Assembly: GCA_011773985.1 (NCBI GenBank)
Contig: WVWN01000078.1
Span: forward strand, 39,151-103,150
DNA from: Candidatus Zixiibacteriota bacterium
Lineage (GTDB): Bacteria; RBG-13-66-14; B26-G2; WVWN01
Length of the DNA: 64,000 nucleotides
Direction: 5' to 3'
Positions within the stretch are counted from its first letter, which is position 1, and each line of letters opens with the position of its first letter. The notes beneath the pieces are model-generated. The model made no database searches. It was given only the letters and a program-made list of their open reading frames with translations, and was not told the DNA's origin. This document shows, piece by piece, positions 5,637 to 23,907 of this stretch. The position numbers were made by a program, and so were the translations under genes.

Positions 5637-7184
5637 GTGGCGCGACTTTACGAATACCAGGGCAAAGCGCTATTGCGACGGGCGGGCGTAAAGGTCCCGC
5701 GCGGGCGGCCGGCGTACTCCCCGGCCGAGGTCGCGGCCGTCGCCTACGAAATCGGCGCCCCGGTCGTGCTCAAGGCCCAGGTCTTCGTTACGGCGCGGGC
5801 CGCGGCCGGCGGCATCCAATTCGCCGATAACGCCATGGCTGCGGAGCGGGTCGCGGGCCGCGAGATGTTCGGCCGCACGATAAAGGGCCAACGTTGCGAC
5901 GTCGTCCTGGTGGAGGAGAGACTCGACATCGCGCGCGAGATGTACGTCGCGGTCGTCGTCGACAACGACGCTCGCAAACCGCTCGTCATCTTCTCTTCCG
6001 TCGGCGGCTCGGGCGTCGAAGAGATCGCCGCGGCGCACCCGGAGGCGTTGGTCAAAAGAGACGTCGAGTCGGCGCGCGGCCTGTACGGCTACGAGGCGCG
6101 CGAGCTGGCGCGGCGCGCGGGCCTTAAAGGCCGGGAGCTGGTCGGCGTCGCGGACGCGTTGACGAAACTTTGGCGGGTCGCCCGGGACGCCGAGGCACGT
6201 GCCGTGGAGATAAACCCGTTGGTAATTACGGCCGGGGGCGAGGTGGTGGCCGCGGACTGCCGTATAACGGCGGACGACTACGCCGTCTTCCGGCACCCGG
6301 AGCTGGCCGTCGCGGTCGCGCGCGAGTTCGACCGGCCGCCGACGGAGCTCGACCTCATCGCGTATAACGCCGAGAAGGACGACTACCGCGGCACGTTCTA
6401 TTTCGTGCAGCTCGAGGAAGGTTTTGGCCGCGAAGGCCGCTATATCGGCTTCCACGGCGCGGGCGGCGGCGGCTCGATGATGTCGATGGACGCGGCGCTC
6501 GCGGAAGGGTTCAATATCGCGAACTTCTGCGACACCTCCGGCAATCCGCCGGCGAGCAAGGTCTACCGCGCGGCGCGCATAATTCTCGCTCAAAAGGGCC
6601 TGGTGGGATACTTCGGCTCGGGCTCGGGCGTCGCGAGTCAGGAGCAGTTCCACTCCGCGCGCGGCCTGGTGAAGGCTTTCCGCGAAGTTTGGCTTAATGT
6701 CCCCTGCGTCGAGCGCCTGGGCGGCAACCGGGAAGAACGGGCGATTCAAATATTGACCGAATATACGAAGGACCTTCCGGCGCCGCTCGAGTGCTACGGC
6801 AAGGACACCTCGGCCCGATATTGCGCCCGGCGGCTGCGCGAGCTCGTGGACGGCTACGACTACGACGCTGCCCGCGAGAAGCCGCCAGAGACGCCGCGCG
6901 ATTCCTCCTATTCTTTTAAGACCGTTACCGGCGGTACCGTCTCCTACGATTACGCGAGGTGCGACGGTTGCCAAACCAAGGTGTGCGTTAATGAGTGCGT
7001 GCCGGGGATACTCGAGCTCGACGGCGGCCGGCCGGTCCTCAACGTCAGCGAGGAGGAGGCGGCGCGGGGGCGCTGCACCGAATGCCTGGCGTGCGAGGTC
7101 GAGTGCCACGCCCGCGGCAACGGCGGCGGCAAAATAACGCTACCCATCCCGGGTTTGGGGGAGTATTTGACTAAGACGGCGTGA
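5637..7184 (+). CDS. succinyl-CoA-synthetase-beta-like ATP-grasp subunit with a C-terminal 2x[4Fe-4S] ferredoxin domain (candidate citryl-CoA synthetase large subunit)
   Basis: N-terminal (M)ARLYEYQGKALLRRAGV and AVEINPLVIT match SucC. Ligase-CoA region GFHGAGGGGSMMSMDAALAEGFNIANFCDTSGN. An extra ~120-aa C-terminus carries CDGCQTKVCVNECVP and CTECLACEVEC cysteine clusters. GTG start. Confidence 0.7.
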   Translation: MARLYEYQGKALLRRAGVKVPRGRPAYSPAEVAAVAYEIGAPVVLKAQVFVTARAAAGGIQFADNAMAAERVAGREMFGRTIKGQRCDVVLVEERLDIAREMYVAVVVDNDARKPLVIFSSVGGSGVEEIAAAHPEALVKRDVESARGLYGYEARELARRAGLKGRELVGVADALTKLWRVARDAEARAVEINPLVITAGGEVVAADCRITADDYAVFRHPELAVAVAREFDRPPTELDLIAYNAEKDDYRGTFYFVQLEEGFGREGRYIGFHGAGGGGSMMSMDAALAEGFNIANFCDTSGNPPASKVYRAARIILAQKGLVGYFGSGSGVASQEQFHSARGLVKAFREVWLNVPCVERLGGNREERAIQILTEYTKDLPAPLECYGKDTSARYCARRLRELVDGYDYDAAREKPPETPRDSSYSFKTVTGGTVSYDYARCDGCQTKVCVNECVPGILELDGGRPVLNVSEEEAARGRCTECLACEVECHARGNGGGKITLPIPGLGEYLTKTA

Positions 7185-7185
7185 T

Positions 7186-8094
7186 ATGTCGATATTGATA
7201 AATTCCGGGGATAAAGTCATCGTCGCCGGCATCACCGGCCGCGAGGGGCGCGCGCGGACGCGCCTAATGAAGGGCTACGGCACCAACGTCGTCGCCGGCG
7301 TTTCGCCCGGCCACGGCGGCGAGGAGGTCGAGGGCGTCCCGGTCTTCGACACCGTGGGCGCCGCGGTCGAGGCGGTGGGCGAGATTTACGCGTCGGTTGT
7401 CTTCGTGCCGGGGCCCGCGGTGAAGGAGGCGGCGCTCGAGGCGTTCGACGCCGGCGTAAAGCTCGCGGTGCTCGTCCCGGACCGCGTGCCCATATGGGAC
7501 GTGCTCGCGATAGATGCCGCGGCGCGGGAGGCCGGCGCCCGATACGTCGGCCCGAACACGCTGGGGGTGTTGTCGGTCGGCGAGGCGGTACTGGGGATGG
7601 TCGGCGGGAGCGCGGAATCGGCGCGGGAATGGTTCAAACCCGGGCCGGTAGGGATATCTTCTCGCTCGGGCGGGATTACGGCGTCGCTGGCCTACTACCT
7701 CGGCCGGGCCGGCGTCGGTGCGACCACGCTCGTCCACGTCGGCGGCGACGCCGTCGTCGGCACGCCCCACCAGGACGTCGTTCGGTTATTCCAGGAGGAC
7801 GCCGATACCAAGGCCGTCGTGTTGTTCGGTGAGATAGGGAGCAGCCAGGAGGAAAAGGTGGCGGAGCTTGTCGCCGAAGGCGTAGTTACTAAGCCGGTGG
7901 TGGCGTTCATAGGCGGCAAGGCCGCGAGGGAGGGGACGCGTTTCTCGCACGCCGGCGCGATCGTCGAGGCCGGCCGCGGGACGTACGAGGGCAAAGTGAA
8001 GGCTTTGCGCGAGGCGGGCGCTGTCGTTGTAGACGATTACGATAAGGTCGCGGAACGTACGTTGGGAGTTTTAAAAGACTTGGGCGAGGTATGA
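7186..8094 (+). CDS. succinyl-CoA-synthetase-alpha-like CoA-binding subunit (candidate citryl-CoA synthetase small subunit)
   Basis: MSILINSGDKVIVAGITGREG CoA-binding N-terminus, GISSRSGGITAS, and a phosphohistidine loop FSHAGAIV. 302 aa. Starts 2 nt after the beta-like gene's stop. Confidence 0.8.
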   Translation: MSILINSGDKVIVAGITGREGRARTRLMKGYGTNVVAGVSPGHGGEEVEGVPVFDTVGAAVEAVGEIYASVVFVPGPAVKEAALEAFDAGVKLAVLVPDRVPIWDVLAIDAAAREAGARYVGPNTLGVLSVGEAVLGMVGGSAESAREWFKPGPVGISSRSGGITASLAYYLGRAGVGATTLVHVGGDAVVGTPHQDVVRLFQEDADTKAVVLFGEIGSSQEEKVAELVAEGVVTKPVVAFIGGKAAREGTRFSHAGAIVEAGRGTYEGKVKALREAGAVVVDDYDKVAERTLGVLKDLGEV

Positions 8095-9545
8095 GCGACG
8101 AAGAGCGAGGAGGCGGTTTGACCAGTAAGCCGGCGTCGCCGGCGTTCGCCAAACTACGGCCCCGTCCCGACATGCGGGCATCTGTGTGCGAGGGCCTCTT
8201 CGGCCAGATGTTCTTAAACCTCGCCGGGGCCTGGTCGGCGTTCGTCACGGCGCTGGCGTTGAGCCTGGGGGCCGGCAGCCGGTCTTTCGGCCTGATCTTC
8301 GCCGCGGGGCCGGTGGTGGCGTTTTCGCAAGCGCTGGGGCCGGTGCTGCTGCCCCTTTTCGGCGGCTCGCGGCGGCGGCTTGTCGTCGCGGCCAGCGCGG
8401 GCGCGCGCGGCATAATTTTCCTCATCCCGGCGGTAGTGCTTTGGCTCGAGCCGGATGCGGCGCTCGCCCTCTTTATCGCTTGTTTCCTGGCCTCGCAGGT
8501 TTTAACCGGCGCCATGATGAGCGTGTGGACGAGTTGGATCGGCGCCATCGTCCCGGAGCGCATCCGCGGCCGCTTTCTCGGTAAGCGGACGCAACTGATG
8601 ATGGCGCTTGGGCTCGTCGTCGCTTTCGCGGCCAGCGTTTTTAAGGACCTCTCCGTGCCGGGGCGTGAAACGGGCCTGACGGGGTTTTTTCGCCGCCTGT
8701 TCGGCATCGCTGGCGGCCTGTGGGGCGCGGGGGGAGAACGGTACGCCTACTTTATAATATTCGCCTTTGCCGGCGCCGCGGGCCTCGCATCCACTCTCCT
8801 GTTGTTGCGACAACGCGACCGGCCGGCCCCTGCCGTACGCTTTTCGCTCCGCTCGTTGGCCGAGCCGCTCCGCGACCGCCGCTTTCGTCACCTGATATAT
8901 TTCTTCGGATGGTGGTGGTTCGCGGCGTCATTCGGCGCGCCGTTTTGGCAACCGTTCTACCTCGAAGTGTTACGCATGTCCCTAACCGCGGTTCAGATCT
9001 ACAACTCGCTTTTGATAATCGCGATGGCGGCGACCGCGGCTTTGTGGGGCCGTCTGTTAGACCGCTTCGGCAACAAGCCGGTCTTCCGAGGGCTGATATT
9101 CTTGGCGACGGCGAACTCGTTCGTTTACGTTTTCATGCGGCCGGACCTTTACTGGTGGGTTTGGCTGGAGGCCGTCACGTCGGGCGCGATGTGGGGTGGG
9201 GCTATGGTCGCGACGATAAACTTTATCATCCGCCTAAGCCCGGAAGCCAAACGGGATAGCTATGTCGCCCTGTACGCCGTCGTTGCCGGCGCGTGCGGCC
9301 TAGTCGCGACCGTCGGCTCCGGTCAGTTCGTGGCGATGCTGCCGCGCTACGTCTCGCTCGCCGGGTGGCAGCTTCTGAATATGAAGGTAGCGTTCCTCAT
9401 AACCACGGCTTTTCGCCTCGTTTCGCACGTTCCTATGTATTTAGTAAAAGAACCTCGGGCGGTGCCCTTCCGTCACATGATGCGCGCGGTGGCGGCGGAC
9501 GTGCGGCTGTGGTTTTTGCGATTCCGACCCGGCCCCGGCAAATGA
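8091..9545 (+). CDS. MFS-type membrane transporter
   Basis: 484 aa with about 12 predicted hydrophobic helices. ATGA overlap with the preceding sucD-like gene suggests co-transcription. Confidence 0.55.
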   Translation: MSDEERGGGLTSKPASPAFAKLRPRPDMRASVCEGLFGQMFLNLAGAWSAFVTALALSLGAGSRSFGLIFAAGPVVAFSQALGPVLLPLFGGSRRRLVVAASAGARGIIFLIPAVVLWLEPDAALALFIACFLASQVLTGAMMSVWTSWIGAIVPERIRGRFLGKRTQLMMALGLVVAFAASVFKDLSVPGRETGLTGFFRRLFGIAGGLWGAGGERYAYFIIFAFAGAAGLASTLLLLRQRDRPAPAVRFSLRSLAEPLRDRRFRHLIYFFGWWWFAASFGAPFWQPFYLEVLRMSLTAVQIYNSLLIIAMAATAALWGRLLDRFGNKPVFRGLIFLATANSFVYVFMRPDLYWWVWLEAVTSGAMWGGAMVATINFIIRLSPEAKRDSYVALYAVVAGACGLVATVGSGQFVAMLPRYVSLAGWQLLNMKVAFLITTAFRLVSHVPMYLVKEPRAVPFRHMMRAVAADVRLWFLRFRPGPGK

Positions 9546-9549
9546 TGTT

Positions 9550-9969
9550 ATGAAAGAGGGAGAACGGAAGATAAAGGTCCTCTTCGTTTGCACCGGCAAC
9601 TCCTGCCGCTCGCAGATGGCCGAGGGTTGGGCGAACCACTTGGGCGCGGGCCTCGTCGAGGCATACTCGGCGGGCGTATACCCCGTCGGCGTCGCGCCCC
9701 TTACGGTGAAGGTCATGGCCGAAGCCGGCGTGGATATTTCGCATCAGCGCGCCAAGGCCGTCGACGAGTTCCTCGGCGAAGAGTTTGACTACGTAATTAC
9801 ACTATGCGATAATGTACGGGAGTTGTGTCCGTACTTCCCGGATGCGGCCAAACGTTTCCACTGGCCTGTAAAAGACGCGTTCGGCCTGGACCTCGACGCG
9901 TACCGCCGCGCCCGCGACGAAATCCGCGCCCGGGTGGAGGCCTTTTTAAACGAAATCAACGGCCCGTAA
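9550..9969 (+). CDS. arsC: arsenate reductase (thioredoxin-coupled, LMW-PTP family) / low-molecular-weight phosphotyrosine phosphatase
   Basis: VLFVCTGNSCRSQMAEG CX5R P-loop plus a downstream TLCDNVRELCPYFP cysteine pair typical of Bacillus-type ArsC. 139 aa. Confidence 0.65.
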   Translation: MKEGERKIKVLFVCTGNSCRSQMAEGWANHLGAGLVEAYSAGVYPVGVAPLTVKVMAEAGVDISHQRAKAVDEFLGEEFDYVITLCDNVRELCPYFPDAAKRFHWPVKDAFGLDLDAYRRARDEIRARVEAFLNEINGP

Positions 9970-9991: not shown

Positions 9992-10339
9992 ATGACGGCC
10001 GAGGCGCCCAAGATAACGCGGCAGCGCGAGCTCGAGGCCGAAATCAACTTCCTTATTCCGCGCCTCGTGATGTTGGGGGCTAAGTTCGTCGTCGTGCACG
10101 GCGCCGTCGCCCGGGGGACGGCTCGAGCCAATTCGAAGTTAAATCTGATCGTCGTCGCCGCGAGCGATCTCCCCTTCAAAGAGCGCCAGAAGTATTTCCG
10201 CGAAAAGCTCAAGGGCCGCGAGCCCCTCGAGATAGTGGTATACACGCTCCCGGAGTTCAACCGCGCCAAGGAAGAGAGCACCCTCGTTAAGCACGCGATG
10301 CGCGAAGGCCGCGTCGTCTACTCGCCCGAGCGGGGGTGA
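9992..10339 (+). CDS. minimal nucleotidyltransferase-fold protein with a degenerate catalytic motif
   Basis: HGAVARGTARANSKLNLIVV aligns to the Pol-beta NTase G[SA]xxRG...hDhDh signature, but both catalytic Asp are replaced (S-K-L-N-L). No HEPN partner is adjacent. Confidence 0.4.
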   Translation: MTAEAPKITRQRELEAEINFLIPRLVMLGAKFVVVHGAVARGTARANSKLNLIVVAASDLPFKERQKYFREKLKGREPLEIVVYTLPEFNRAKEESTLVKHAMREGRVVYSPERG

Positions 10340-10374: not shown

Positions 10375-11151
10375 ATGGCCGATAAGTGGTTCACAAGCAT
10401 AACGGACGTTGGGCCCAACAAAATACGCCTCAGCGGCTACCCCATCGGAGAGCTGATGGGCCGCAAGAGCTTCGCCGAGGTCGTGTGGCTCACGCTGCGC
10501 GGCGAGCTGCCGTCCGAGGCCGAGGGGAAGCTCCTCGATGCGGTCTTGGTGTCGTCGGTGGATCACGGCGTAACGCCGCCGTCCACGTTGGCCGCACGTA
10601 CGGCGGCCTCCACGGGCGCGCCGGTGAACGCGGCGCTCGCCTCGGGCGTCCTCGCCGTCAACCGCTTCCACGGCGGCGCGGTGGAGGGGTGTATGGCGGC
10701 TCTCGCCGAGGCAGTGGCCCATATGAAGGAGAAAGACGTCTCGCGTGAGGAGGCTGCGGCGGCGACAATCGGACGTTACGGCGAAGGTGGGCGTCGCGTA
10801 GAGGGTTTCGGCCACCGCCTCCACGACGACGACCCGCGGGCGGCGCGGCTATTCGCGTTGGCGGAGGAGCTGGGCCTAGCGGCCGAAGGTATCCCGATGG
10901 CCCGGGCTTTCGAAACCGCGCTTCGGAACCTTGCGGGTAAGGGGCTGCCATTGAACGTCGACGGCGCCATCGGCGCGTGCCTTTTCGACTTGGGTTTCGA
11001 GCCGCATACTGCCAACGCGTTTTTCATTCTGGCGCGAATGCCCGGGTGGCTTGCGCACGTCGTCGAGGAGCAGACGCGCGAGCGGCCCATGCGGCGCATT
11101 GAGCCGTCGGCGTGGGCGTACGACGGCCCGGGCGAGAGACATTTGACTTAG
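10375..11151 (+). CDS. citryl-CoA lyase-like protein (stand-alone C-terminal half of citrate synthase)
   Basis: 258 aa that align to the C-terminal catalytic half of citrate synthase: HGGAVEGCMAAL, GFGHRLHDDDPRAARLF, LPLNVDGAIGACLFDLGF...ARMPGWLAHVVEE. It lacks the N-terminal ~170 residues, as in Hydrogenobacter Ccl (~259 aa). Confidence 0.65.
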   Translation: MADKWFTSITDVGPNKIRLSGYPIGELMGRKSFAEVVWLTLRGELPSEAEGKLLDAVLVSSVDHGVTPPSTLAARTAASTGAPVNAALASGVLAVNRFHGGAVEGCMAALAEAVAHMKEKDVSREEAAAATIGRYGEGGRRVEGFGHRLHDDDPRAARLFALAEELGLAAEGIPMARAFETALRNLAGKGLPLNVDGAIGACLFDLGFEPHTANAFFILARMPGWLAHVVEEQTRERPMRRIEPSAWAYDGPGERHLT

Positions 11152-11164
11152 CTCGAGGTTCAAT

Positions 11165-11698
11165 ATGGAAGATAGAATTAAAGAGTTGTTGCCCGAGTTG
11201 GCAGATATCGAGGAGGGGGCGCTACGCGATAAAGTAGTCGCGGTGTACAAGGCAGCGCTCGAGCGCGGCGGCTGGCAACCGGAAGATATGGCACGCCTCC
11301 CGTCCACGCTTTTAATAGATCCGCCGCCCGCCACGTACGTCGAGCACACGCGCGCCGTCACGCGGTGTGCCGTCGCCGCGGCGGAGGCGATGGCGGCAGT
11401 ATACGGTTCCCGGGTGAATATAAACCGCGACCACCTGGTCGCCGCGGGCCTTCTTCACGACGTCGGCAAGCTCTTGGAGTATCGCGAGGAGGGCGGCAAA
11501 TTCGTCAAGTCGGAGCTGGGCCGGATGCTCCGGCACCCGTTGTCTGGTGCCGCGCTCTGCTACGGGTTCGGCCTTCCCCCGGAAGTAACCCACGTCGTCG
11601 CGACGCACGCCCGCGAGGGCGAGGGCGCCCGGGCGACGCCGGAGGCGATAATAATTCACCACGCCGACTTCATCAACTTTGAGCCGTTTAAATTGTGA
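11165..11698 (+). CDS. HD-domain phosphohydrolase
   Basis: HTRAVTRCAV...AGLLHDVGK conserved H...HD metal-binding residues. 177 aa. Confidence 0.6.
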   Translation: MEDRIKELLPELADIEEGALRDKVVAVYKAALERGGWQPEDMARLPSTLLIDPPPATYVEHTRAVTRCAVAAAEAMAAVYGSRVNINRDHLVAAGLLHDVGKLLEYREEGGKFVKSELGRMLRHPLSGAALCYGFGLPPEVTHVVATHAREGEGARATPEAIIIHHADFINFEPFKL

Positions 11699-12963
11699 AG
11701 AGTGGCAACGCGCAAACGTTCGCCGAAAAGATATTTTCGCGTAAGACGGGCCGGCCGGTGGCCGCCGGTGAAATAGTCGTGCTCGAGCCCGACCGTCTCC
11801 TCTCCCACGACAACGCCGCGGCCATCGCGAAGACCTTCGCGGAATTCGGCCTGAAACGGATTGTGGACCCGGCTAAGGCCGTCATCGTCTTGGACCACTG
11901 CGTCCCGGCGGCCTCGGAAAAATATGCCAAGAACCATCTAGAGATCCGTGAGTTTGTGGAAGAGAACGATATCGAGAACTTCTTCGACGTCGGCGAGGGG
12001 GTGTGCCACCAGGTCTTCGCAGAACAGGGGTTCGCGCTGCCGGGCGAACTTATTCTGGGCGCCGACAGCCACACGACGTCGTACGGCGCTTTCGGTGCGT
12101 TCGCCGCGGGCATAGGTCGGACCGAGATGGCGGCGCTCTACGCTACCGGTAAATTATGGCTTATGTGCCCGGCGTCGCTAAGGATTGAGGTAGCGGGCCA
12201 GTTCGGCGCGGACGTTTACCCTAAAGATTTGATTTTATACATAATAGGCGACCAGGGCGCCGACGGCGCGCTGTACAAGTCGGTGGAGTTCGCCGGGCCG
12301 ACGGTGGCGGCGGCGTCGCTGTCGGGGCGGATGACGCTCTGCAATATGGCCGCGGAGATAGGCGCCAAGAACGCGTACGCCGCCCCGGACGAAAAGACGC
12401 GGGCCTTCCTCGACGGCCGCGCGCGTCGTGAGTACGACGAGGTCTTCCCGGACGACGGCGCCGCGTACGAGCGAACGCTCTCGTACGACGTCGCCGGCCT
12501 CGAGCCCCAAGTAGCGGCCCCCCACCGCGTAGACAACGTCGTCCACGTAACGGAGTTGGTGGGTACGCGCGTGGACCAGGTCGTCGTCGGGACCTGCACC
12601 AACGGCCGCGTCGACGATTTAGTGGTGGGGGCGAATATCCTGCGGAACCGGCAGGTGGCACCGGGCGTGCGCGTCCTCGTCTTTCCGGCGAGCCGGGCGG
12701 TTTACCTCGAGGCCCTGGGGATCGGCGCGCTGGCGACGTTGGCCGAGGCGGGTTGCGTAATTATGAACCCGGGTTGCGGGCCGTGCCTCGGCGCCCACGA
12801 GGGAATCCTGGCCGCGGGCGAGGTTTGCCTCTCGACCGCGAACCGCAACTTCCGCGGCCGCATGGGCTCGACGGAAGCCGAGATTTATTTATGCTCGCCG
12901 GCGACCGCGGCGGCTTCGGCTTTATGCGGAAGGATTACCGACCCCCGGACGGTGAGGGCGTGA
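11695..12963 (+). CDS. aconitase-family large subunit (3-isopropylmalate dehydratase / homoaconitase LeuC-like, 420-aa type)
   Basis: ILGADSHTTSYGAFGAFAAGIG, VVGTCTNGRVDD and NPGCGPCLGAHEG Fe-S cysteine ligands. 422 aa. Confidence 0.8.
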   Translation: MKSGNAQTFAEKIFSRKTGRPVAAGEIVVLEPDRLLSHDNAAAIAKTFAEFGLKRIVDPAKAVIVLDHCVPAASEKYAKNHLEIREFVEENDIENFFDVGEGVCHQVFAEQGFALPGELILGADSHTTSYGAFGAFAAGIGRTEMAALYATGKLWLMCPASLRIEVAGQFGADVYPKDLILYIIGDQGADGALYKSVEFAGPTVAAASLSGRMTLCNMAAEIGAKNAYAAPDEKTRAFLDGRARREYDEVFPDDGAAYERTLSYDVAGLEPQVAAPHRVDNVVHVTELVGTRVDQVVVGTCTNGRVDDLVVGANILRNRQVAPGVRVLVFPASRAVYLEALGIGALATLAEAGCVIMNPGCGPCLGAHEGILAAGEVCLSTANRNFRGRMGSTEAEIYLCSPATAAASALCGRITDPRTVRA

Positions 12964-12967
12964 GCGT

Positions 12968-13096
12968 ATGGAGTCGTTAGTGTTTATAATCGTAATCATC
13001 TTGTTGGTCCTGGCTATTTTGCTCGTCGTCGCGCTCGCCGCCATAATGCTGGCGACGTGGCTATCGTCGCGGGGTAAGCGAGATGATAAGAGGTAA
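12968..13096 (+). CDS. tiny hydrophobic ORF between the aconitase-family subunit genes (possibly spurious)
   Basis: ATG at 12968 to TAA at 13094-13096, 42 codons: MESLVFIIVIILLVLAILLVVALAAIMLATWLSSRGKRDDKR. One predicted transmembrane helix plus a basic tail. It exactly fills the LeuC-LeuD-like gap and overlaps the LeuD-like start. Confidence 0.2.
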   Translation: MESLVFIIVIILLVLAILLVVALAAIMLATWLSSRGKRDDKR

Positions 13097-13577
13097 GGTT
13101 TGGAAGTACGGCGACGACGTCAACACCGACGTCATCTTCCCGGGGCGTTACACGTATACGATAACGGACCCGGGCGAAATCGCCTCCCACGCTCTCGAGG
13201 ACTTGGACCCGACGTTCGCGAAGAACGTTAGGCCAGGGGATATCGTCGTAGCCGGCAAAAACTTCGGCTGCGGCTCGAGCCGCGAGCAGGCCGCGCTGTG
13301 CCTGAAGTACGCGGGCGTGGCCGCGGTGGTCGCGGCATCGTTCGCGCGCATCTTCTTCCGCAACGCCATCAACGGCGGCCTGCCGACCGTAACCGCGCCC
13401 GAAGCCATAGCACGTATAAACGCCGGCGACGAGATAAGCATCGATTTCGAGGCGGGCGAATTGACGGCGGCGGACGGCTCGAGTTACGAGTTCGCGCGGC
13501 TACCGGCGGAGGTTGTCGGCATTCTCGAGGCGGGTGGCCTGGTGCCGTGGGTCAAAAAGGAGTTGGGAGCGAAATGA
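13083..13577 (+). CDS. aconitase-family small subunit (LeuD-like)
   Basis: MIRGKVWKYGDDVNTDVIFPGRY and GKNFGCGSSREQAA swivel-domain motifs. 164 aa. Confidence 0.8.
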   Translation: MIRGKVWKYGDDVNTDVIFPGRYTYTITDPGEIASHALEDLDPTFAKNVRPGDIVVAGKNFGCGSSREQAALCLKYAGVAAVVAASFARIFFRNAINGGLPTVTAPEAIARINAGDEISIDFEAGELTAADGSSYEFARLPAEVVGILEAGGLVPWVKKELGAK

Positions 13578-16723: not shown

Positions 16724-17842
16724 ATAAACAAATATCGCATAGCGTGGCTGCCGGGCGACGGCATAGGCCGCGACGTTACAGAGGGGGCGCGCTTAGTCCT
16801 GGAGCGCCTCGCGCTCGACGCCGAATACGTCCCCGGCGACGTCGGTTGGGAGTTCTGGTGCCGGGAGGGCAACCCGCTGCCCGAGCGCACGAAGGACCTT
16901 ATGCGCAGGACCGATTGCGCGCTCTTCGGCGCCATCACCTCCAAACCCAAGGACGAGGCCGCACGCGAGCTCACGCCCGAGCTCCAGGGCAAGGGTTTCG
17001 TCTATTACTCGCCCATCGTCCGCCTGCGGCAAGAGTTTGACCTTTACGTAAATATGCGGCCGTGCAAGGCTTACGCCGGCAACCCCCTCAACTACCGCGA
17101 CGACGTCGACCTCGTCGTCTTCCGCGAGAACACCGAGGGCCTTTACGCGGGCGTGGAGTGGTCTCCCGTGCCGGCGGCGGTGTACGATTGCCTAATGGCC
17201 AACCACAAGAAGATGGCCGCGTTCGCGGGCGTCCCCCTTGGCGAGCTCGCCATCTCGACGCGCATAATGACGAAGCGCGCGTGCGAGCGTATAGTCCGCG
17301 CCGCGTTCGAGTACGCGGGAAAGAAGGGGCGTAAGTCCGTAACGGTGGTGGAGAAGCCTAACGTACTGCGCGAGACCGGCGGCCTTATGGTCCGCACCGC
17401 CCGCGAGGTCGCCCAGGACTACCCGGGCGTCGAGCTGTGGGAGACCAATATAGACGCGATGGCGATGTGGCTTGTCAAGAACCCGCAGGACTACGACATC
17501 CTGGTGGCGGAGAACATGTTCGGCGACATCATCTCGGACGAGGCGGCGCAGCTCGTCGGCGGCCTGGGCTTCGCTTGCGCCGGTAACATCGGCGACGACT
17601 ACGCCGTCTTCGAGCCCACGCACGGCTCGGCGCCCAAGTACGCGGGCCAATACAAAGTCAACCCGACGGCGATGCTGCTCGCAACGAGGATGATGCTCGA
17701 GTACCTGGGCGAGGAGGATAAGGCTGCGGCTTTGGAAAACGCCGTCGCCGCCGTCATCGCGGAAGGGAAGGTCCGCACGTACGATATGGGCGGCAAAAAC
17801 TCCACGCTCGAGATGGCGGAGGCAGTCGCCGCGCGGGTTTGA
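16724..17842 (+). CDS. icd: isocitrate dehydrogenase (NADP), prokaryotic homodimeric type; 5' end uncertain
   Basis: IAWLPGDGIGRDV N-terminus, LVVFRENTEGLYAGVEW and HGSAPKYAGQYKVNPTAMLLATRMMLEYLG match Icd rather than LeuB. There is no ATG/GTG/TTG in frame between the upstream stop (16658-16660) and the conserved N-terminus at 16739. SD-like GAGGT at 16715-16719. The first in-frame ATG (16901) lies inside the Rossmann domain. Confidence 0.75.
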   Translation: MNKYRIAWLPGDGIGRDVTEGARLVLERLALDAEYVPGDVGWEFWCREGNPLPERTKDLMRRTDCALFGAITSKPKDEAARELTPELQGKGFVYYSPIVRLRQEFDLYVNMRPCKAYAGNPLNYRDDVDLVVFRENTEGLYAGVEWSPVPAAVYDCLMANHKKMAAFAGVPLGELAISTRIMTKRACERIVRAAFEYAGKKGRKSVTVVEKPNVLRETGGLMVRTAREVAQDYPGVELWETNIDAMAMWLVKNPQDYDILVAENMFGDIISDEAAQLVGGLGFACAGNIGDDYAVFEPTHGSAPKYAGQYKVNPTAMLLATRMMLEYLGEEDKAAALENAVAAVIAEGKVRTYDMGGKNSTLEMAEAVAARV

Positions 17843-19229: not shown

Positions 19230-20477
19230 GTGGCCACGATCGTAGAAAAGATAATCGCGGCCCACTCCGCGGACGACGTCTACGCCGGCGCGACGGTCTG
19301 GCTCGAGCTTGACGTCCGCGCGGCGCGGGACTTCGGCGGCGCGAGCGTCGTGAAAAATTTCGAGAAGCACTACCCAGGCCAAAAGGTGGCCGAAGCCGGC
19401 AAGACGTTCTTCACCTTCGACTGCGTCGTCCCCGCGAACAACATCCCCTACGCCAATAACCAGCAGCTGTGCCGCGAGTTCGCGGCGCGACAGGGCGTCA
19501 AAGTTTTCGACGTCGACGCCGGCATCGGCTCGCACGTCTTGATGGAGGAAGGGCTCGCCCGCCCGGGCCAGACCGTCGTCAACACCGACAGCCATATGAA
19601 TGTGGTCGGCGCGATCGGCTGCCTCGGCCAGGGCATGGGCGACGCAGATGTTGCTTTTGCCTTCCGCGCAGGCTGGACCTGGCTCGAAGTTCCGCCGTCG
19701 GTCAAAGTAGTATTAAACGGTAAATTCAAATGGCCCACGACGGCGAAGGACCTGGCGCTCGCGCTGTTGCGCGAGTTCGGCTCGAGCCGGTTGCTGGGCA
19801 AGGCGGTGGAATTGTACGGCCCGGCCGCCGAACGCCTTTCTCTCGAGGAAAGGATTACGGTGGCGTCAATGGCGACGGAGATGGGCGCGGTCGGAATCTT
19901 TATGCCGCCGAGCGACGAGGTACTCGAGTGGTGCGGCGGCGCCGCCGGCGCCGAGGTGGAAGGGGTTTACGCCGACGAGGACGCGTCGTACGAGGCGACG
20001 TACGAGCTCGACGTCGACGGCCTCGAGCCGCTGGTGGCGTGTCCGCCGTCCCCGGCTAACGTGAAAAGCGCCAGCGATGTCGCAGGGAGGGAGATCGGCT
20101 CGGCCTTCTTCGGCTCGTGTACCAACGGCCGCCTGGAAGATTTCCGGGCCACGGCGCGCGTGATGTCTGGGCGGCCGGCGGCGGACGGCGTCGTGGCGTA
20201 CGCCGTCCCGGCGACGCGCCGCGTATACGGCGCGATGTTGGCTGAGGGCCTGGCCGCGGAGCTCTTCAGCGCCGGGTTCGTAGTATCCAACGCCGGCTGC
20301 GGCGGCTGCGCTCAGGGCCAGATAGGTATGACTGGCAAAGGTGAAGTCCAGGTCTCGACCTCCAATCGCAACTTCCCCGGCAAACAGGGCGCCGGCGAAA
20401 CGTACTTATGTTCGCCCGCGACGGCCGCGGCGTCGGCTATTATGGGACGCATTACGGACCCGCGGGAGGTAGCCTGA
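19230..20477 (+). CDS. aconitase-family large subunit, second paralog (LeuC/homoaconitase/small aconitase-like)
   Basis: VVNTDSHMNVVGAIG, FGSCTNGRLED and SNAGCGGCAQG cluster ligands. 415 aa. Clearly diverged from the 11695 paralog. Confidence 0.75.
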   Translation: MATIVEKIIAAHSADDVYAGATVWLELDVRAARDFGGASVVKNFEKHYPGQKVAEAGKTFFTFDCVVPANNIPYANNQQLCREFAARQGVKVFDVDAGIGSHVLMEEGLARPGQTVVNTDSHMNVVGAIGCLGQGMGDADVAFAFRAGWTWLEVPPSVKVVLNGKFKWPTTAKDLALALLREFGSSRLLGKAVELYGPAAERLSLEERITVASMATEMGAVGIFMPPSDEVLEWCGGAAGAEVEGVYADEDASYEATYELDVDGLEPLVACPPSPANVKSASDVAGREIGSAFFGSCTNGRLEDFRATARVMSGRPAADGVVAYAVPATRRVYGAMLAEGLAAELFSAGFVVSNAGCGGCAQGQIGMTGKGEVQVSTSNRNFPGKQGAGETYLCSPATAAASAIMGRITDPREVA

Positions 20478-21013
20478 TGGCGGCGAGGCCTTTTGTACTC
20501 GAAGGCCCGGTTTGGCCCATTGTAGGAGCGTTAGGGACTTTTCTGAACGACGTAGACACGGACCAAATCTATCACAACGCCCACCTCGCCGTTACCGACG
20601 TTGACGAGATGGGCCAATACGCTTTCGGCAACCTCGCGGGCTGGGAGGATTTCCCGAAGAAAGCGAAGCCGGGCGACATACTCGCGGTGGGCGCGAACTT
20701 CGGCGCGGGCTCGAGCCGTCAGCATGCGGTGGATTGCTTCCGCGCGCTGGGCGTCGCCGGCGTCGTCGGCTTATCCTTCGGCGCTATCTACAAGCGGAAC
20801 GCGACCAATGCCGGCTGGCCGCTTATGGAATGCCCGCGACTGGCCGAGCTCGAGCTGGCGCCGGGCGACGTTTTGAGGATGAACCTGGAGACGGGCAAGG
20901 TGGCGAACGTAACGAAGGGCAAAGCGGTACCGGCGCGGCCGTTCTCGCGCGTCCAAAAGGATATTTACTCTGCGGGGGGCCTACTCGCGTACGGCGCGAA
21001 ACTCGCCAGCTGA
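20477..21013 (+). CDS. aconitase-family small subunit, second paralog (LeuD-like)
   Basis: ATG at 20477 overlaps the large-subunit stop (TGATG). MAARPFVLEGPVWPIVGALGTFLNDVDTDQIYH and GANFGAGSSRQHAV. About 178 aa. The six-frame ORF begins upstream (20408), out of context. Confidence 0.75.
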   Translation: MAARPFVLEGPVWPIVGALGTFLNDVDTDQIYHNAHLAVTDVDEMGQYAFGNLAGWEDFPKKAKPGDILAVGANFGAGSSRQHAVDCFRALGVAGVVGLSFGAIYKRNATNAGWPLMECPRLAELELAPGDVLRMNLETGKVANVTKGKAVPARPFSRVQKDIYSAGGLLAYGAKLAS

Positions 21014-21023
21014 GGCGAAGTGC

Positions 21024-22166
21024 TCACGAAACCGCTTTCGTGAATTTAAGGCCCCTGGCCTCCAACGCCGCGACGAATGGCTCCGGCTCGAGCGCTACTT
21101 CTGGCGGGTAAGCGCCGGCTTTTTTTATTACCCCTTGAGCCAACATAGCCGCGGCGACGGCGACCGGGAAGCCGGTCGTCCGTTGCATCGCCGTTAAGGC
21201 GCTCGCGGCGTCGGCGTAGTCGACGAGCTCGTACGTGGCGACCCTATTCTCGCCGCGGGCCTTTCCTGCGGCCCGGCAAAGGACGAGGACGACGTCGTCG
21301 TTGCCCTCGGGCAGGGCGGAGGCGAGCCGTTCGGCGAGCACCTCGTGGGGTCTGCGTCGCACGCCGCCCGCCGAGATTGCTTCGCCGCTCGCGAGGCCGA
21401 GGTCGAAGAGGAGTTTCACTGCGGCGCAGTGGCCCGGGTACCTGATGGTTTTGTAATCCAATTCCCGCACGCGCCCGCGGTACGTATACGGGAGGGTGGA
21501 GGCGCCGCCGGAGGTATGGAACGCTTCTACGCGCCCTACGGGCGGGAAATCGAACTCCTCGACGCCGGTGAGCGGCGGTACGGTCGCGACGTCGCCGTCT
21601 TTCAATATGAGGCACGGCTCGGCGTATTCGTTAATCAAACCTTGTACCGAAAATAGGAGGGCGTAGTTGAGTGGCGGCTGCGGCTCGCGCGGCAGGCCGC
21701 CGATGCGTATGTGTACTTCCCAAACCTCGTCGAAGGATGATATCAACCTTGCCGCAAGAACGTTCGTAATCCCCGGCGCAAGGCCCATATCGGGAATTAT
21801 CGTTACGCCCGCCGCCCGGGCCTCGTCGTCGAGCGCGAGCTCCGCGCGAACGACGTCGGTATTGCCGCCCATGTCGACGAAATGGGAGCCGGCAGCTACG
21901 GCGGCGCGCGCGAGCGTAGGATTATGTCGGTACGGCGTCGCGGCGACGCATACGTCGTGTCCGGCGATGAGTTCTCGGGTGGCCGCTTCGTCGACGGCGT
22001 CGATGGCCGCGGCTCGAGCTAAGCGGCCGCCACGCTTAGCGCAAAGTCTCTGGGCTCGCGCGACGCGTTCGTCGGCGACGGTTATCGCGTCGAAAGTTCG
22101 GTGGGTGACGAAGTCGTATAGAACGGCCTCGGCCATGCGGCCGGCGCCGATTATTACGGCCTTCAT
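21024..22166 (-). CDS. saccharopine dehydrogenase NAD(P)-binding family protein
   Basis: MKAVIIGAGRMAEAV Rossmann start, preceded by AGGAGG 6 nt upstream. Sacchrp_dh-like C-terminal domain. The six-frame ORF includes 21 extra upstream codons. Confidence 0.6.
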   Translation of the reverse strand: MKAVIIGAGRMAEAVLYDFVTHRTFDAITVADERVARAQRLCAKRGGRLARAAAIDAVDEAATRELIAGHDVCVAATPYRHNPTLARAAVAAGSHFVDMGGNTDVVRAELALDDEARAAGVTIIPDMGLAPGITNVLAARLISSFDEVWEVHIRIGGLPREPQPPLNYALLFSVQGLINEYAEPCLILKDGDVATVPPLTGVEEFDFPPVGRVEAFHTSGGASTLPYTYRGRVRELDYKTIRYPGHCAAVKLLFDLGLASGEAISAGGVRRRPHEVLAERLASALPEGNDDVVLVLCRAAGKARGENRVATYELVDYADAASALTAMQRTTGFPVAVAAAMLAQGVIKKAGAYPPEVALEPEPFVAALEARGLKFTKAVS

Positions 22167-22464
22167 TCCTGGCCTCCTGTTAACACCGCAATAATTATCC
22201 GAGTTAAATTTACCAAGCGGCGCTGTCAAGGGTTTGCTTTGTTAATTAAGCCGCCAAGGGCGCTGGAGTTGTAGTCGCTATCGAATCCTCGGGCCGAGGC
22301 CGAGAACAACGATTTTGAGGTCGGCCGAGTACTTACGGGAAAAGCGCCACGGCCGGAGGGCTTATCGCCGCCGCTATGGCCGATCGGGGGACGTGAGTTG
22401 TCGATGTTTTAAATGTGAAGGGGGGCTGGCTCCGAGCCGGCTTTCGACGGGAGGAAATGGGGTA

Positions 22465-23907
22465 TCACTTCCAGTGGCCGCTGATGAACTCCTCGACCTC
22501 TGGAAGGCCCCCTTGGAGGATTAGGTAGCCGTTGGTGGGCTCGCGGTCGGTAATCTCGCCGGCGACGGGGGTGAGCATTATCCTCCTGACCTCGTCAAGG
22601 TCGTCGGTCCGACCGAGGGCCCAACAAAGCTTAACGTACGCGACCTCCGGCAGCATGTTCTGGGCGGGGATGACGCCGAGGCGTTGCATGTCGCGGCCGG
22701 TCTCGTAGACATCCATGTGGACGTAACCCCATAGCGTTTGGACCGTCATATACACAGCGACGCGGGCCTCCTGGGCGCGCTTGAGTGCCGGGTAGCACGG
22801 CTTGTTGACGTGGCCGAGGCCCGTCCCGGCAATGACGATGCCGCGATAGCCCAGGTCGACGAGCGCGTCGAGGATGTCCGGATACATATTCGGGTAATAA
22901 TATATCAACGCCACGCGCTCCTCGAAGGCGGTGTTGAGTACGCATTTGCGGTCGCCGGGGCGGCGCCGGGCGTAATCGTCGCGCAGGGGCGCGATACGCT
23001 CGCGGTTTACGGTCGCGAGCGGGACGTCGCCGATTGTGCGGAACGTTGAGCGGTAGGAGGAGTGCATCTTGCGGACGCGGGTGCCGCGGTGGAGGAGGCC
23101 GTACAGGTCCGAGGTGGGCCCGAACATACACACCATAACCTCGGCTATATCCGATTCCGCCGCGGCTTTAGCGGCGTGGATGAGGTTGAGCGCGGCGTCG
23201 GAGGAGGGGCGGTCGCTGGAGCGCTGGCTCCCGACGAGGACGACGGGGACGGGCGATTTCTGGACCATAAACGAGAGGACCGCGGCGGTGTGGTGCATGG
23301 TATCGGTGCCGTGGCCCACGACGATGCCGTCGACGCCCTTTTCGATCTCGCGGGCGATGGCCTTCGCGAGCACTACGTACTCTTGGGCCCCCATATTTTC
23401 AGAGAAGACGCCAAAGAGCTTCTCGGTTTCTAGATTACAGATGTCGGCGAGTTCCGGGACCGCGCCGTACAACTCGCCGGGCGTGAAGGCCGGAATGACG
23501 GCGCCGGTGCGGTAGTCGAGGCGGGAGGCGATGGTGCCGCCGGTTCCCAGGAGTTTGACGAACGGCCGGCCTTCCTTGAAGGGGAATTCCTTTTCCGGTA
23601 TCTTGTAGTGGGCGACGGCGTACCCGGTCTCTTTTATATCGGTTATAGCGTCGACGGCCACGCCGACATTATAACCGGAGGCGATCTTGATGACTATGTG
23701 CTGGTCGTCGCCGGACTCGGCGCGGGGGAGAACCCGTCCCTCGAAGCGGCCCCGGCTCGAGTCGATGAGGACATCGCTCCAGACTTTGACGCCGAATTTT
23801 TTTAGGCATTCGAGGGCGGCACCGCGGTAACCTTTGTGGAGATCTTGTGCCGGGGCCTTTGGAGCCTTTTTCCGTACCGTATTTTTATTTCGGGGCGGGC
23901 GAGCCAT
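22465..23907 (-). CDS. gatD: glutamyl-tRNA(Gln) amidotransferase subunit D, archaeal-type (asparaginase family)
   Basis: GatD-specific N-terminal domain (EGRVLPRAESGDDQHIVIKIASGYNVGVAVDAITDI), followed by the asparaginase fold LLGTGGTIAS...GIVVGHGTDTM. 480 aa. Confidence 0.65.
   Translation of the reverse strand: MARPPRNKNTVRKKAPKAPAQDLHKGYRGAALECLKKFGVKVWSDVLIDSSRGRFEGRVLPRAESGDDQHIVIKIASGYNVGVAVDAITDIKETGYAVAHYKIPEKEFPFKEGRPFVKLLGTGGTIASRLDYRTGAVIPAFTPGELYGAVPELADICNLETEKLFGVFSENMGAQEYVVLAKAIAREIEKGVDGIVVGHGTDTMHHTAAVLSFMVQKSPVPVVLVGSQRSSDRPSSDAALNLIHAAKAAAESDIAEVMVCMFGPTSDLYGLLHRGTRVRKMHSSYRSTFRTIGDVPLATVNRERIAPLRDDYARRRPGDRKCVLNTAFEERVALIYYYPNMYPDILDALVDLGYRGIVIAGTGLGHVNKPCYPALKRAQEARVAVYMTVQTLWGYVHMDVYETGRDMQRLGVIPAQNMLPEVAYVKLCWALGRTDDLDEVRRIMLTPVAGEITDREPTNGYLILQGGLPEVEEFISGHWK

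Follow-up and report, generated by a model that had tools for sequence, protein, structure and literature searches.

The 64-kb window analysed here, which is the whole 64,000 nt stretch of a Zixibacteria contig, encodes a 258-aa protein that is a citryl-CoA lyase (Ccl) by family membership. Upstream of it is a SucC/SucD-like pair that is probably the matching ADP-forming citryl-CoA synthetase, with a large subunit ending in a domain predicted to bind two iron–sulphur (Fe-S) clusters. We think it reasonably probable that lyase and synthetase act together in an oxidative or biosynthetic role, or in both directions, and there is no evidence here that the organism fixes CO2. The genes are listed in Table 1; loci from related genomes are given L numbers.

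The preliminary description of this DNA had recognized the C-terminal half of a citrate synthase standing alone, which is the architecture of citryl-CoA lyase, and this proved correct. The Pfam Citrate_synt match of the open reading frame (ORF) is confined to part of the profile (positions 164-355/357 only, 137.9 bits); the N-terminal region of citrate synthase is missing and the C-terminal part alone is present. The protein reaches the cut-offs of two NCBIfam citryl-CoA lyase families (NF004866, 246.7 against 245; NF004869, 239.9 against 212) but not that of the equivalog NF004864 (231.6 against 261). Its top match in the Protein Data Bank (PDB) is the Ccl of Hydrogenobacter thermophilus (6hxp_A, E = 4.8e-48), and full-length citrate synthases (approximately 77 bits) and the lyase module of ATP-citrate lyase (approximately 65 bits) score far below this. 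There are four recognizable motifs: FHGGA (aa 98-102), GFGHR (aa 144-148), DPR (aa 153-155) and NVDG (aa 194-197). In an alignment with Hydrogenobacter Ccl, to which the protein is approximately 40 % identical, and with the operon homologues described below, the catalytic residues His99, His147 and Asp196 are invariant, as are the oxaloacetate-binding residues Arg155 and Arg221. Taken together, the family scores and the alignment identify the protein as a genuine citryl-CoA lyase. An identical protein is present at NCBI as 'MAG: citryl-CoA lyase [candidate division Zixibacteria bacterium]', and two independent assemblies share the gene order of the window.

As the preliminary description had stated, the SucC/SucD-like genes lie upstream on the same strand and next to a gene for an MFS transporter. 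The start of the transporter gene overlaps the stop of the small-subunit gene by 4 nt. The large subunit consists of an N-terminal ATP-grasp domain, a linker (RPPTE, 6333-6347; DYRG, 6381-6392), a carboxylate-binding domain (GGGGS, 6462-6476; GNPPA, 6540-6554) and a fused C-terminal Fe-S domain (approximately 6900 to 7181). Pfam gives a strong match to ATP-grasp_2 (177.9 bits) and weak matches to Citrate_bind (24.7 bits) and Citrate_synth_N. There is no Pfam match to Ligase_CoA (PF00549) in the large subunit or in any of the 120 homologues listed, most of which carry Citrate_bind. This is in contrast with the Thermus-type SucC proteins, where all 120 listed have Ligase_CoA and none has Citrate_bind. 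The small subunit matches CoA_binding, Ligase_CoA and Succ_CoA_lig and has a putative phosphohistidine, His255, within SHAGA (7945-7959); an EINPL motif is also found in the synthetase pair. The large subunit misses the NCBIfam cut-offs for SucC (NF001913, 242.1 against 370) and for the malate–CoA ligase beta subunit (190 against 604), and the small subunit misses that for SucD (NF004230, 270 against 336). By these curated thresholds the pair is not an orthodox succinyl-CoA synthetase (SCS).

Comparison of the whole large subunit, by PDB search or by Foldseek, was tried and does not separate Ccs from SCS; the domain-level search alone was informative. When the carboxylate-binding half (aa 250-415) is used, the best match is Hydrogenobacter CcsA (6hxq_B, 49.6 bits), followed by Thermus SucC (37.3 bits) and other SucC proteins (approximately 31 bits). 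There are three motifs that the large subunit has in common with Hydrogenobacter CcsA and that are absent in SucC: RPPTE...D-x-[YH]-RG in the linker, GGGGS and GNPPAxKxY. Where the large subunit has GGGGS and GNPPA, SucC has GNGAG and GGGA, respectively.

A phylogeny of the large subunit points in the same direction. The window protein and its relatives form a clade with Hydrogenobacter CcsA, and the support for this clade against SucC was 100/100 bootstraps both with four SucC references and with 11. Its nearest outgroup is Thermus-type SucC. The trees were made by neighbour-joining from 405-409 columns with 100 bootstraps and held no AclB or MtkA sequences; the SucC references were four solved structures and seven Deinococcota sequences. 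A homologue search with Thermus SucC gave only sequences that are at least 74 % identical, essentially all from Deinococcota, and added little depth. Because this is a distance method and the sampling of SucC is narrow, the tree is supportive rather than final.

Over its whole length, the large subunit prefers Thermus SucC (205.7 bits with a single sequence, 291 with a profile) to CcsA (130.2 and 171), and Foldseek with the AF2 model places Thermus SCS first and CcsA at rank 11. The small subunit is closest to the alpha subunits of archaeal (257 bits) and Thermus (240 bits) SCS, with CcsB (6hxq_A) at 167 bits. Such matches would fit a plain succinyl-CoA synthetase encoded in a tricarboxylic acid (TCA) cycle operon, with the short citrate synthase homologue acting as a minimal citrate synthase. 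Homologues of the large subunit are often annotated 'succinyl-CoA synthetase subunit beta' and the window has no other sucCD; a tblastn search with the SucC references found no orthodox sucC in the 64-kb window or in 85 loci. However, the missed SCS cut-offs of both subunits, the lack of Ligase_CoA, the CcsA motifs in the substrate domain and the position in the CcsA clade all argue against this explanation. Additionally, fusions of the SucD-like protein to Ccl in relatives make sense only if there is a shared intermediate, and other relatives pair the same type of synthetase with acyl-CoA lyases of a second family. We regard a plain succinyl-CoA synthetase as very improbable.

The predicted Fe-S module and the operon in other species

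The C-terminal domain of the large subunit is approximately 95 aa long and has eight cysteines in two motifs, CX2CX4CX3C (aa 442-454) and CX2CX2CX3C (aa 480-490). The spacing of the first is non-canonical for a bacterial-type ferredoxin with two [4Fe-4S] clusters and the domain misses the Pfam Fer4 thresholds (Fer4_9, 21.7 bits, E = 2e-4, against 27; Fer4_6, 19.3 against 25). AF2 models most of it with confidence, with mean pLDDT values for blocks of 10 residues that are mostly 82-93 and one block at 71. All eight cysteines are invariant across 16 homologues from different phyla (Coatesbacteria, Eremiobacterota, Planctomycetota, Gemmatimonadota, Calditrichia, Acidobacteriota, Cloacimonetes, Marinimicrobia and Anaerolineae). 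They are predicted to be the ligands of two [4Fe-4S] clusters.

In more distant relatives the large subunit is shorter (approximately 410-425 aa) and its gene is followed directly by an ORF of 84-92 aa that encodes the predicted Fe-S module separately (Table 1). In L086 and L087, the two loci that are long enough to show it, this ORF sits between the two synthetase genes. The separate proteins are 36-40 % identical to the fused domain and seven of the eight cysteines are invariant, the eighth being missing in L086 only. Because the separate ORFs are homologous to the fused domain, the Fe-S module is, as judged by this homology, an old and integral third component of the whole synthetase clade and not a soluble ferredoxin fused by chance. 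The preliminary description had taken the fusion as a sign of ferredoxin-dependent reductive carbon metabolism; an integral module, whether fused or split, does not bear this out. As no redox step is involved in the reaction, the module most plausibly has a structural role, or that of a sensor of redox state or O2, rather than that of a catalytic electron carrier.

A search with the C-terminal half of the large subunit against 1.84 billion representative proteins gave 410 clusters at E <= 1e-3. Among the best 150 of these 410 clusters, the full-length proteins are either fused to the Fe-S domain (approximately 470-540 aa) or unfused (approximately 395-450 aa). P0386, the single unfused protein that was tested, matches CcsA (292 bits) better than Thermus SucC (209 bits). 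The public names of the homologues are inconsistent and include 'succinyl-CoA synthetase beta', 'acetate--CoA ligase family protein' and 'ATP-grasp domain-containing protein'.

In a collection with one genome per species there are at least 545 confirmed matches to the Fe-S synthetase family; it is spread over the genomes of hundreds of species, in more than ten phyla that are mostly uncultured. The route had been described as rare and phylogenetically restricted, and these numbers contradict that view. We examined the gene neighbourhoods of 80 species-representative loci by tblastn. Of 71 informative loci, 69 have the gene for the SucD-like subunit after that for the large subunit; for Ccl the count is 51 of 57, and a gene for an HD-domain protein comes after Ccl in 33 of 51. 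Among the 42 loci with at least 8 kb of downstream sequence, 25 have an Iso_dh-family dehydrogenase gene and 24 have aconitase-like subunits; a co-oriented PrpD-family gene is found downstream in 15 loci. Typically the large subunit comes first, followed by the small subunit, Ccl, HD, an aconitase-like pair, the dehydrogenase and a second aconitase-like pair. In the window this operon is loosened: genes for an MFS transporter, a low-molecular-weight (LMW) phosphatase-like protein and a nucleotidyltransferase-like protein lie between the small subunit and Ccl, which are 2.3 kb apart, and the dehydrogenase and second aconitase-like pair are displaced downstream.

In six loci (L015, L027, L028, L041, L044 and L075), mostly from Anaerolineae, the SucD-like protein and Ccl are fused into an ORF of approximately 590 aa. 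The fusion in L075 (11464-13236) was confirmed as CoA_binding, Ligase_CoA and Citrate_synt in one protein. Such fusions argue strongly for an intermediate shared by the two proteins. Genes for the dihydrolipoamide dehydrogenase Lpd, for LipB, for 2-oxoacid dehydrogenase E1 and for NuoCD of complex I adjoin the operon in some relatives from Calditrichia, KSB1 and Marinimicrobia and in some that are unclassified.

The contexts at the edge of the clade are different. In L090 (247-6397), genes for glutamate mutase (B12-binding subunit, Met_asp_mut_E and MutL) are followed directly by genes for a Ccl-like protein of 261 aa, a CcsA-like protein of 400 aa that lacks the Fe-S module and a SucD-like protein. 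This suggests citramalyl-CoA chemistry, which could be an ATP-conserving branch of the methylaspartate pathway. The lyase gene downstream in L086 and L087 is not Ccl but belongs to the HpcH/HpaI family, which includes CitE and the malyl-CoA and citramalyl-CoA lyases. These partners suggest that other hydroxy-acids are used somewhere in the wider clade.

Probable substrate and direction of the proposed module

The gene linkage and the fusions, together with the CcsA-like substrate domain, the position in the CcsA clade and the missed SucC and SucD cut-offs, support the candidate citryl-CoA synthetase/lyase module of the preliminary description. In the scheme that we favour, the ATP-grasp large subunit and the small subunit, through His255, would convert citrate, ATP and CoA to citryl-CoA, ADP and Pi, and Ccl, through His99, His147 and Asp196, would convert citryl-CoA to acetyl-CoA and oxaloacetate; both steps would be reversible and together would amount to a split ATP-citrate lyase. 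The pair thus probably interconverts citrate and acetyl-CoA plus oxaloacetate with ATP. In relatives, the operon could form a self-contained route between acetyl-CoA plus oxaloacetate and 2-oxoglutarate, in which the genes after Ccl would supply the HD protein, one or two aconitase-like heterodimers of LeuCD/HacAB type (or a PrpD dehydratase) and an isocitrate/homoisocitrate dehydrogenase-like enzyme. PrpD-family proteins act on tricarboxylates. We infer from sequence that citrate is the substrate because of the family scores of Ccl, its oxaloacetate-binding arginines and the frequent PrpD partner; homocitrate, or a broad specificity, would be a less probable alternative. The residues of Ccl were also tried as a guide to substrate by comparing the window protein with the Ccl-like protein of L090; the catalytic and arginine residues are kept in both and hence do not discriminate.

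The standard transformed free energies have been given as -5.9 kJ/mol for the synthetase, -2.1 kJ/mol for the lyase and -8.0 kJ/mol for ATP-citrate lyase (PMC13147460, Table 1). The synthetase/lyase pair should therefore be reversible; the overall reaction being close to equilibrium, the direction of flux would be set by metabolite ratios. The ATP-citrate lyase of Desulfobacter postgatei is said to run in the citrate-forming, ATP-yielding direction, a finding attributed to Möller and co-workers in 1987.

The preliminary description had pointed to a reductive TCA cycle of the Hydrogenobacter type and to ferredoxin-dependent reductive metabolism. On this reading the module would cleave citrate for autotrophic CO2 fixation and the ferredoxin domain would reflect such a metabolism. 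The same kinds of enzyme do serve this purpose in Aquificaceae and Leptospirillum (PMC13147460; PMC9802188), the Ccl is most similar in the PDB to that of Hydrogenobacter, and aconitase-like and dehydrogenase genes are linked to it. Additionally, Zixibacteria RBG-1 encodes a 2-oxoglutarate:ferredoxin oxidoreductase (PMC3903129). However, the 64-kb window contains no gene for 2-oxoglutarate:ferredoxin oxidoreductase, pyruvate:ferredoxin oxidoreductase, fumarate reductase or 2-oxoglutarate carboxylase, and the operon is spread over hundreds of species from mostly heterotroph-type phyla. The Lpd, LipB, E1 and NuoCD genes beside it in several relatives, and the presence of the Fe-S module beside HpcH-type lyases in settings that have no relation to the TCA cycle, also argue against a reductive cycle. 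Finally, a reconstruction of RBG-1 gave a heterotroph with an oxidative TCA cycle that was judged to be non-autotrophic (PMC3903129). We consider autotrophic citrate cleavage to be unlikely. The lack of reductive TCA markers in the window, the neighbouring genes in relatives and the RBG-1 reconstruction favour an oxidative/biosynthetic or bidirectional role, and in this heterotroph-like Zixibacterium the module would most likely serve oxidative or biosynthetic metabolism, where it would conserve ATP in the place of citrate synthase, or run both ways.

A further explanation is that the substrate is another hydroxy-acid (homocitrate, citramalate, 2-methylcitrate or malate) and that the module serves the ATP-conserving chain elongation of 2-oxoacids rather than the TCA cycle, from 2-oxoglutarate to 2-oxoadipate (lysine) or from pyruvate to 2-oxobutyrate (isoleucine). 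The enzymes encoded downstream would suit this. Both aconitase-like pairs are of the LeuCD/HacAB type and the closest match of the dehydrogenase is a homoisocitrate dehydrogenase. The dehydrogenase also lacks the Asn equivalent to Asn115 of Escherichia coli isocitrate dehydrogenase, which binds the gamma-carboxylate of isocitrate, and reads S-P-I-V-R-L-R instead. A gene of the saccharopine dehydrogenase family adjoins the second aconitase-like pair, and the TCA-cycle locus of Caldithrix abyssi holds homologues of enzymes of the alpha-aminoadipate lysine pathway (PMC5317091). The glutamate mutase link in L090 and the HpcH lyase link in L086 and L087 suggest a wider clade with non-citrate substrates. 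Together with the whole-protein scores and the limits of the tree given above, and with a dehydrogenase gene that has no canonical start codon in an operon broken up by inserted genes, these points weigh against the scheme that we favour. On the other side, Ccl reaches the citryl-CoA lyase cut-offs and keeps Arg155 and Arg221, the tricarboxylate family PrpD is encoded in 15 operons, and no LysW/X/Y/Z or aminotransferase genes are linked to the operon in the loci examined. The homoisocitrate dehydrogenase of Thermus reportedly uses isocitrate efficiently, as is attributed to Miyazaki and co-workers in 2003. On balance, chain elongation with another hydroxy-acid seems improbable, and a citryl-CoA synthetase/lyase pair acting on citrate remains our preferred reading.

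A bolder and more doubtful version of this reading is that the Fe-S synthetase and Ccl form a reversible, ATP-coupled citrate synthase/lyase that is gated by redox state or oxygen and that takes over from citrate synthase in hundreds of species that are uncultured and mostly heterotrophic (Zixibacteria, Anaerolineae, Aminicenantes, Calditrichia, Marinimicrobia, Acidobacteriota and others). If so, one ATP would be gained by substrate-level phosphorylation at the citrate-forming step and the direction could be switched with the cellular redox state. The Fe-S module, as a fused domain or a third subunit, would then define an unrecognized three-component class of ADP-forming hydroxyacyl-CoA synthetases.

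The two-step citrate system was found among autotrophs in Aquificaceae and Leptospirillum alone in a 2026 survey (PMC13147460), where two-step cleavage is regarded as a rare marker of the reductive TCA cycle; genome surveys take it as evidence of autotrophy (PMC9802188). A preprint mentions homologues of the synthetase in Acidobacteria, Deltaproteobacteria and Caldithrix but makes no mention of an Fe-S domain (10.1101/2022.10.25.513756). In the searchable literature, which is incomplete, we found no description of an Fe-S or ferredoxin domain in a citryl-CoA synthetase and nothing specific on these enzymes in the phyla concerned. Ccl had already been annotated; what appears to be new is the double-cluster synthetase family in its fused and split forms, its near-invariant operon with Ccl, HD, aconitase-like and dehydrogenase genes, the occasional AclA-like fusions, and the breadth of the system in heterotroph-type candidate phyla. 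If our reading is correct, annotation pipelines misname one subunit and misread the central carbon metabolism of these lineages, and the synthetase and lyase genes cannot be used as a marker of autotrophy. The citrate-forming step may also conserve ATP in many anaerobes, and a non-redox ligase with a conserved double-cluster module would be a new case for Fe-S regulation or architecture.

Other genes of the window

Table 1. Features of the operon region in the window, and separate Fe-S ORFs in related loci (positions within each locus)
Feature	Position	Strand	Length	Basis or details
Large (beta, CcsA-like) subunit, ADP-forming acyl-CoA synthetase	5637..7184	+	515 aa	Pfam, NCBIfam, motifs, tree
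Two cysteine motifs, C-terminal ferredoxin-like domain	6960..7106	+		CDGCQTKVCVNEC 6960-6998; CTECLACEVEC 7074-7106
Small (alpha, CcsB-like) subunit	7186..8094	+	302 aa	CoA-binding and CoA-ligase domains
MFS transporter	8091..9545	+	484 aa	Pfam MFS_1, 55.7 bits
Low-molecular-weight phosphatase/ArsC-like	9550..9969	+	139 aa	Pfam LMWPc, 82.7 bits
Small ORF, weak nucleotidyltransferase-like match	9992..10339	+	115 aa	Pfam Polbeta, 20.5 bits, sub-cut-off
Ccl, citryl-CoA lyase (by family membership)	10375..11151	+	258 aa	NCBIfam, PDB match, residue conservation
HD-domain metal-dependent phosphohydrolase-like	11165..11698	+	177 aa	Pfam HD, 50.3 bits
Aconitase-family large subunit 1 (LeuC/HacA type)	11695..12963	+	422 aa	NF001614, 551.6 against 385
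Aconitase-family small subunit 1 (LeuD/HacB type)	13083..13577	+	164 aa	TIGR02087, 203 against 109
Iso_dh-family beta-decarboxylating dehydrogenase (isocitrate/homoisocitrate-like)	16724..17842	+	372 aa if ATA start	Pfam Iso_dh, 271.7 bits
Aconitase-family large subunit 2	19230..20477	+	415 aa	NF001614, 407.6 against 385
Aconitase-family small subunit 2	20408..21013	+		TIGR02087, 115.8 against 109, match from residue 44
Separate Fe-S ORF, L086	3239-3517
Separate Fe-S ORF, L087	4979-5257
Separate Fe-S ORF, L088	2299-2556
Separate Fe-S ORF, L089	1444-1698

The three genes between the small subunit and Ccl are insertions with a narrow distribution. The MFS transporter gene is found in the operon in Zixibacteria-type loci only (L001, L006, L008 and L009) and its product has no NCBIfam match and no PDB match. 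The LMW phosphatase-like protein misses the NCBIfam cut-off for arsenate reductase (thioredoxin) (123 against 215); its gene has the same place, after the small subunit and before Ccl, in a Coatesbacteria locus, L003 (13566-14030), and is a lineage-specific accessory. The 115-aa ORF is specific to Zixibacteria-type loci and is kept in L002, L007, L008 and L009. A scan of the operon region for promoters and terminators gave results close to the expectation from shuffled sequence.

Directly after Ccl, the HD protein is a conserved neighbour of a putative phosphohistidine enzyme, and a sequence search found no relative of it in the PDB. The start of the first aconitase-family large-subunit gene overlaps its stop by 4 nt, and the position of this gene in the operon is conserved; the small-subunit gene is kept after it in relatives. 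There is a 119-nt gap between these two aconitase-like genes in the window. It holds a small, very hydrophobic ORF (12968-13082, MESLVFIIVIILLVLAILLVVALAAIMLATWLSSRGKR...), which could be a membrane micropeptide or a chance ORF.

The preliminary description had listed an isocitrate dehydrogenase and two aconitase-family pairs downstream of Ccl. All of these are present, but the dehydrogenase gene probably begins near 16724, at an ATA codon, and not at the first ATG, which is at 16901. The ATA aligns with the ATG of the homologues (MAKYKIAW), and a start at 16901 would drop approximately 59 N-terminal residues, including the GDGIG motif. It may be that translation starts at a non-canonical codon, that the assembly has an error here or that the gene is inactivated. 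The top PDB match of the protein is Thermus homoisocitrate dehydrogenase (243 bits) and the NAD-isocitrate dehydrogenases come next (approximately 230 bits). In many relatives, such as L014, L040, L064, L068 and L070, the second aconitase-family large-subunit gene comes after that for the dehydrogenase. The true start of the second small subunit is probably downstream of 20408.

The saccharopine dehydrogenase-family gene (21024-22229, minus strand) lies tail to tail with this pair and may have a connection with lysine (alpha-aminoadipate) or polyamine metabolism. Beyond it are genes for an archaeal-type Glu-tRNA(Gln) amidotransferase on the minus strand, GatD (22465-23907; 510.5 against 324) and GatE (26305-28254; 520.3 against 456), both above their NCBIfam equivalog cut-offs. 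An archaeal origin of the DNA, which these two genes had suggested, was rejected because the identical Ccl is deposited under Zixibacteria and because the contig also encodes PheS/PheT of bacterial type, ZapA/ZapB and a type IX secretion sorting domain. The rest of the contig being bacterial, GatD and GatE seem to have reached a Zixibacterium from archaea by horizontal transfer. There are also two radical SAM/SPASM proteins of approximately 475 aa that look paralogous (24001-25428 and 41133-42563, both on the plus strand); the gene for the first lies between gatD and gatE, beside a prenyltransferase/cyclase-like gene.

Comparison with known systems

The CcsAB synthetase and the Ccl of Hydrogenobacter thermophilus are the two-step system that Aoshima and co-workers reportedly described in 2004. 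The window proteins share its plan of three separate polypeptides with the same folds (6hxq, 6hxp) and the same His/His/Asp in Ccl, and the large subunit has the CcsA motifs RPPTE...D-x-[YH]-RG, GGGGS and GNPPAxKxY and falls with CcsA in a common clade against SucC. Unlike Hydrogenobacter CcsA, a chain of 429 residues that ends without it, the window large subunit has the eight-cysteine domain, and its ATP-grasp half and the small subunit are nearer to Thermus and archaeal SCS than to CcsAB. Another difference is that genes of the window type share a conserved operon with those for HD, aconitase-like and dehydrogenase proteins. The Hydrogenobacter system belongs to autotrophs of the Aquificaceae and Leptospirillum (PMC13147460), whereas the window type is spread over hundreds of species, mostly of heterotroph type.

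The window proteins are expected to carry out the same overall chemistry as prokaryotic ATP-citrate lyase (AclAB; Chlorobium limicola, 6hxj), and the six related loci in which the small subunit is fused to Ccl resemble AclA in this respect. In the window, unlike in AclAB, the small subunit and Ccl are encoded by separate genes. The window pair is far less similar to AclB (65.7 bits) and AclA (125 bits) than it is to SCS or Ccs. No solved chain of ATP-citrate lyase or Ccs that was matched by the large subunit in the PDB searches has an Fe-S domain.

The window pair is like SucCD of the Thermus and archaeal type (3ufx, 2yv2) in having two subunits, a catalytic His in (S/G)HAGA and the EINPL motif. 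In contrast with SucCD, it is obligatorily linked to an acyl-CoA lyase and has an extra Fe-S domain and a diverged carboxylate-binding domain. If our reading is correct, the split forms, the partly fused forms and those with different lyases are intermediates that can be added to the series leading from succinyl-CoA synthetase through citryl-CoA synthetase to ATP-citrate lyase.

Finally, in the serine cycle, malate thiokinase (MtkAB) and malyl-CoA lyase are an example of a SucCD homologue that activates a hydroxy-acid and a lyase that cleaves the resulting CoA ester. The proposed module follows the same logic of synthetase and then lyase, and the relatives with a split Fe-S module use an HpcH/HpaI lyase, which is the family of malyl-CoA lyase. 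The lyase of the window is, however, a member of the citrate synthase family and not of the HpcH family.

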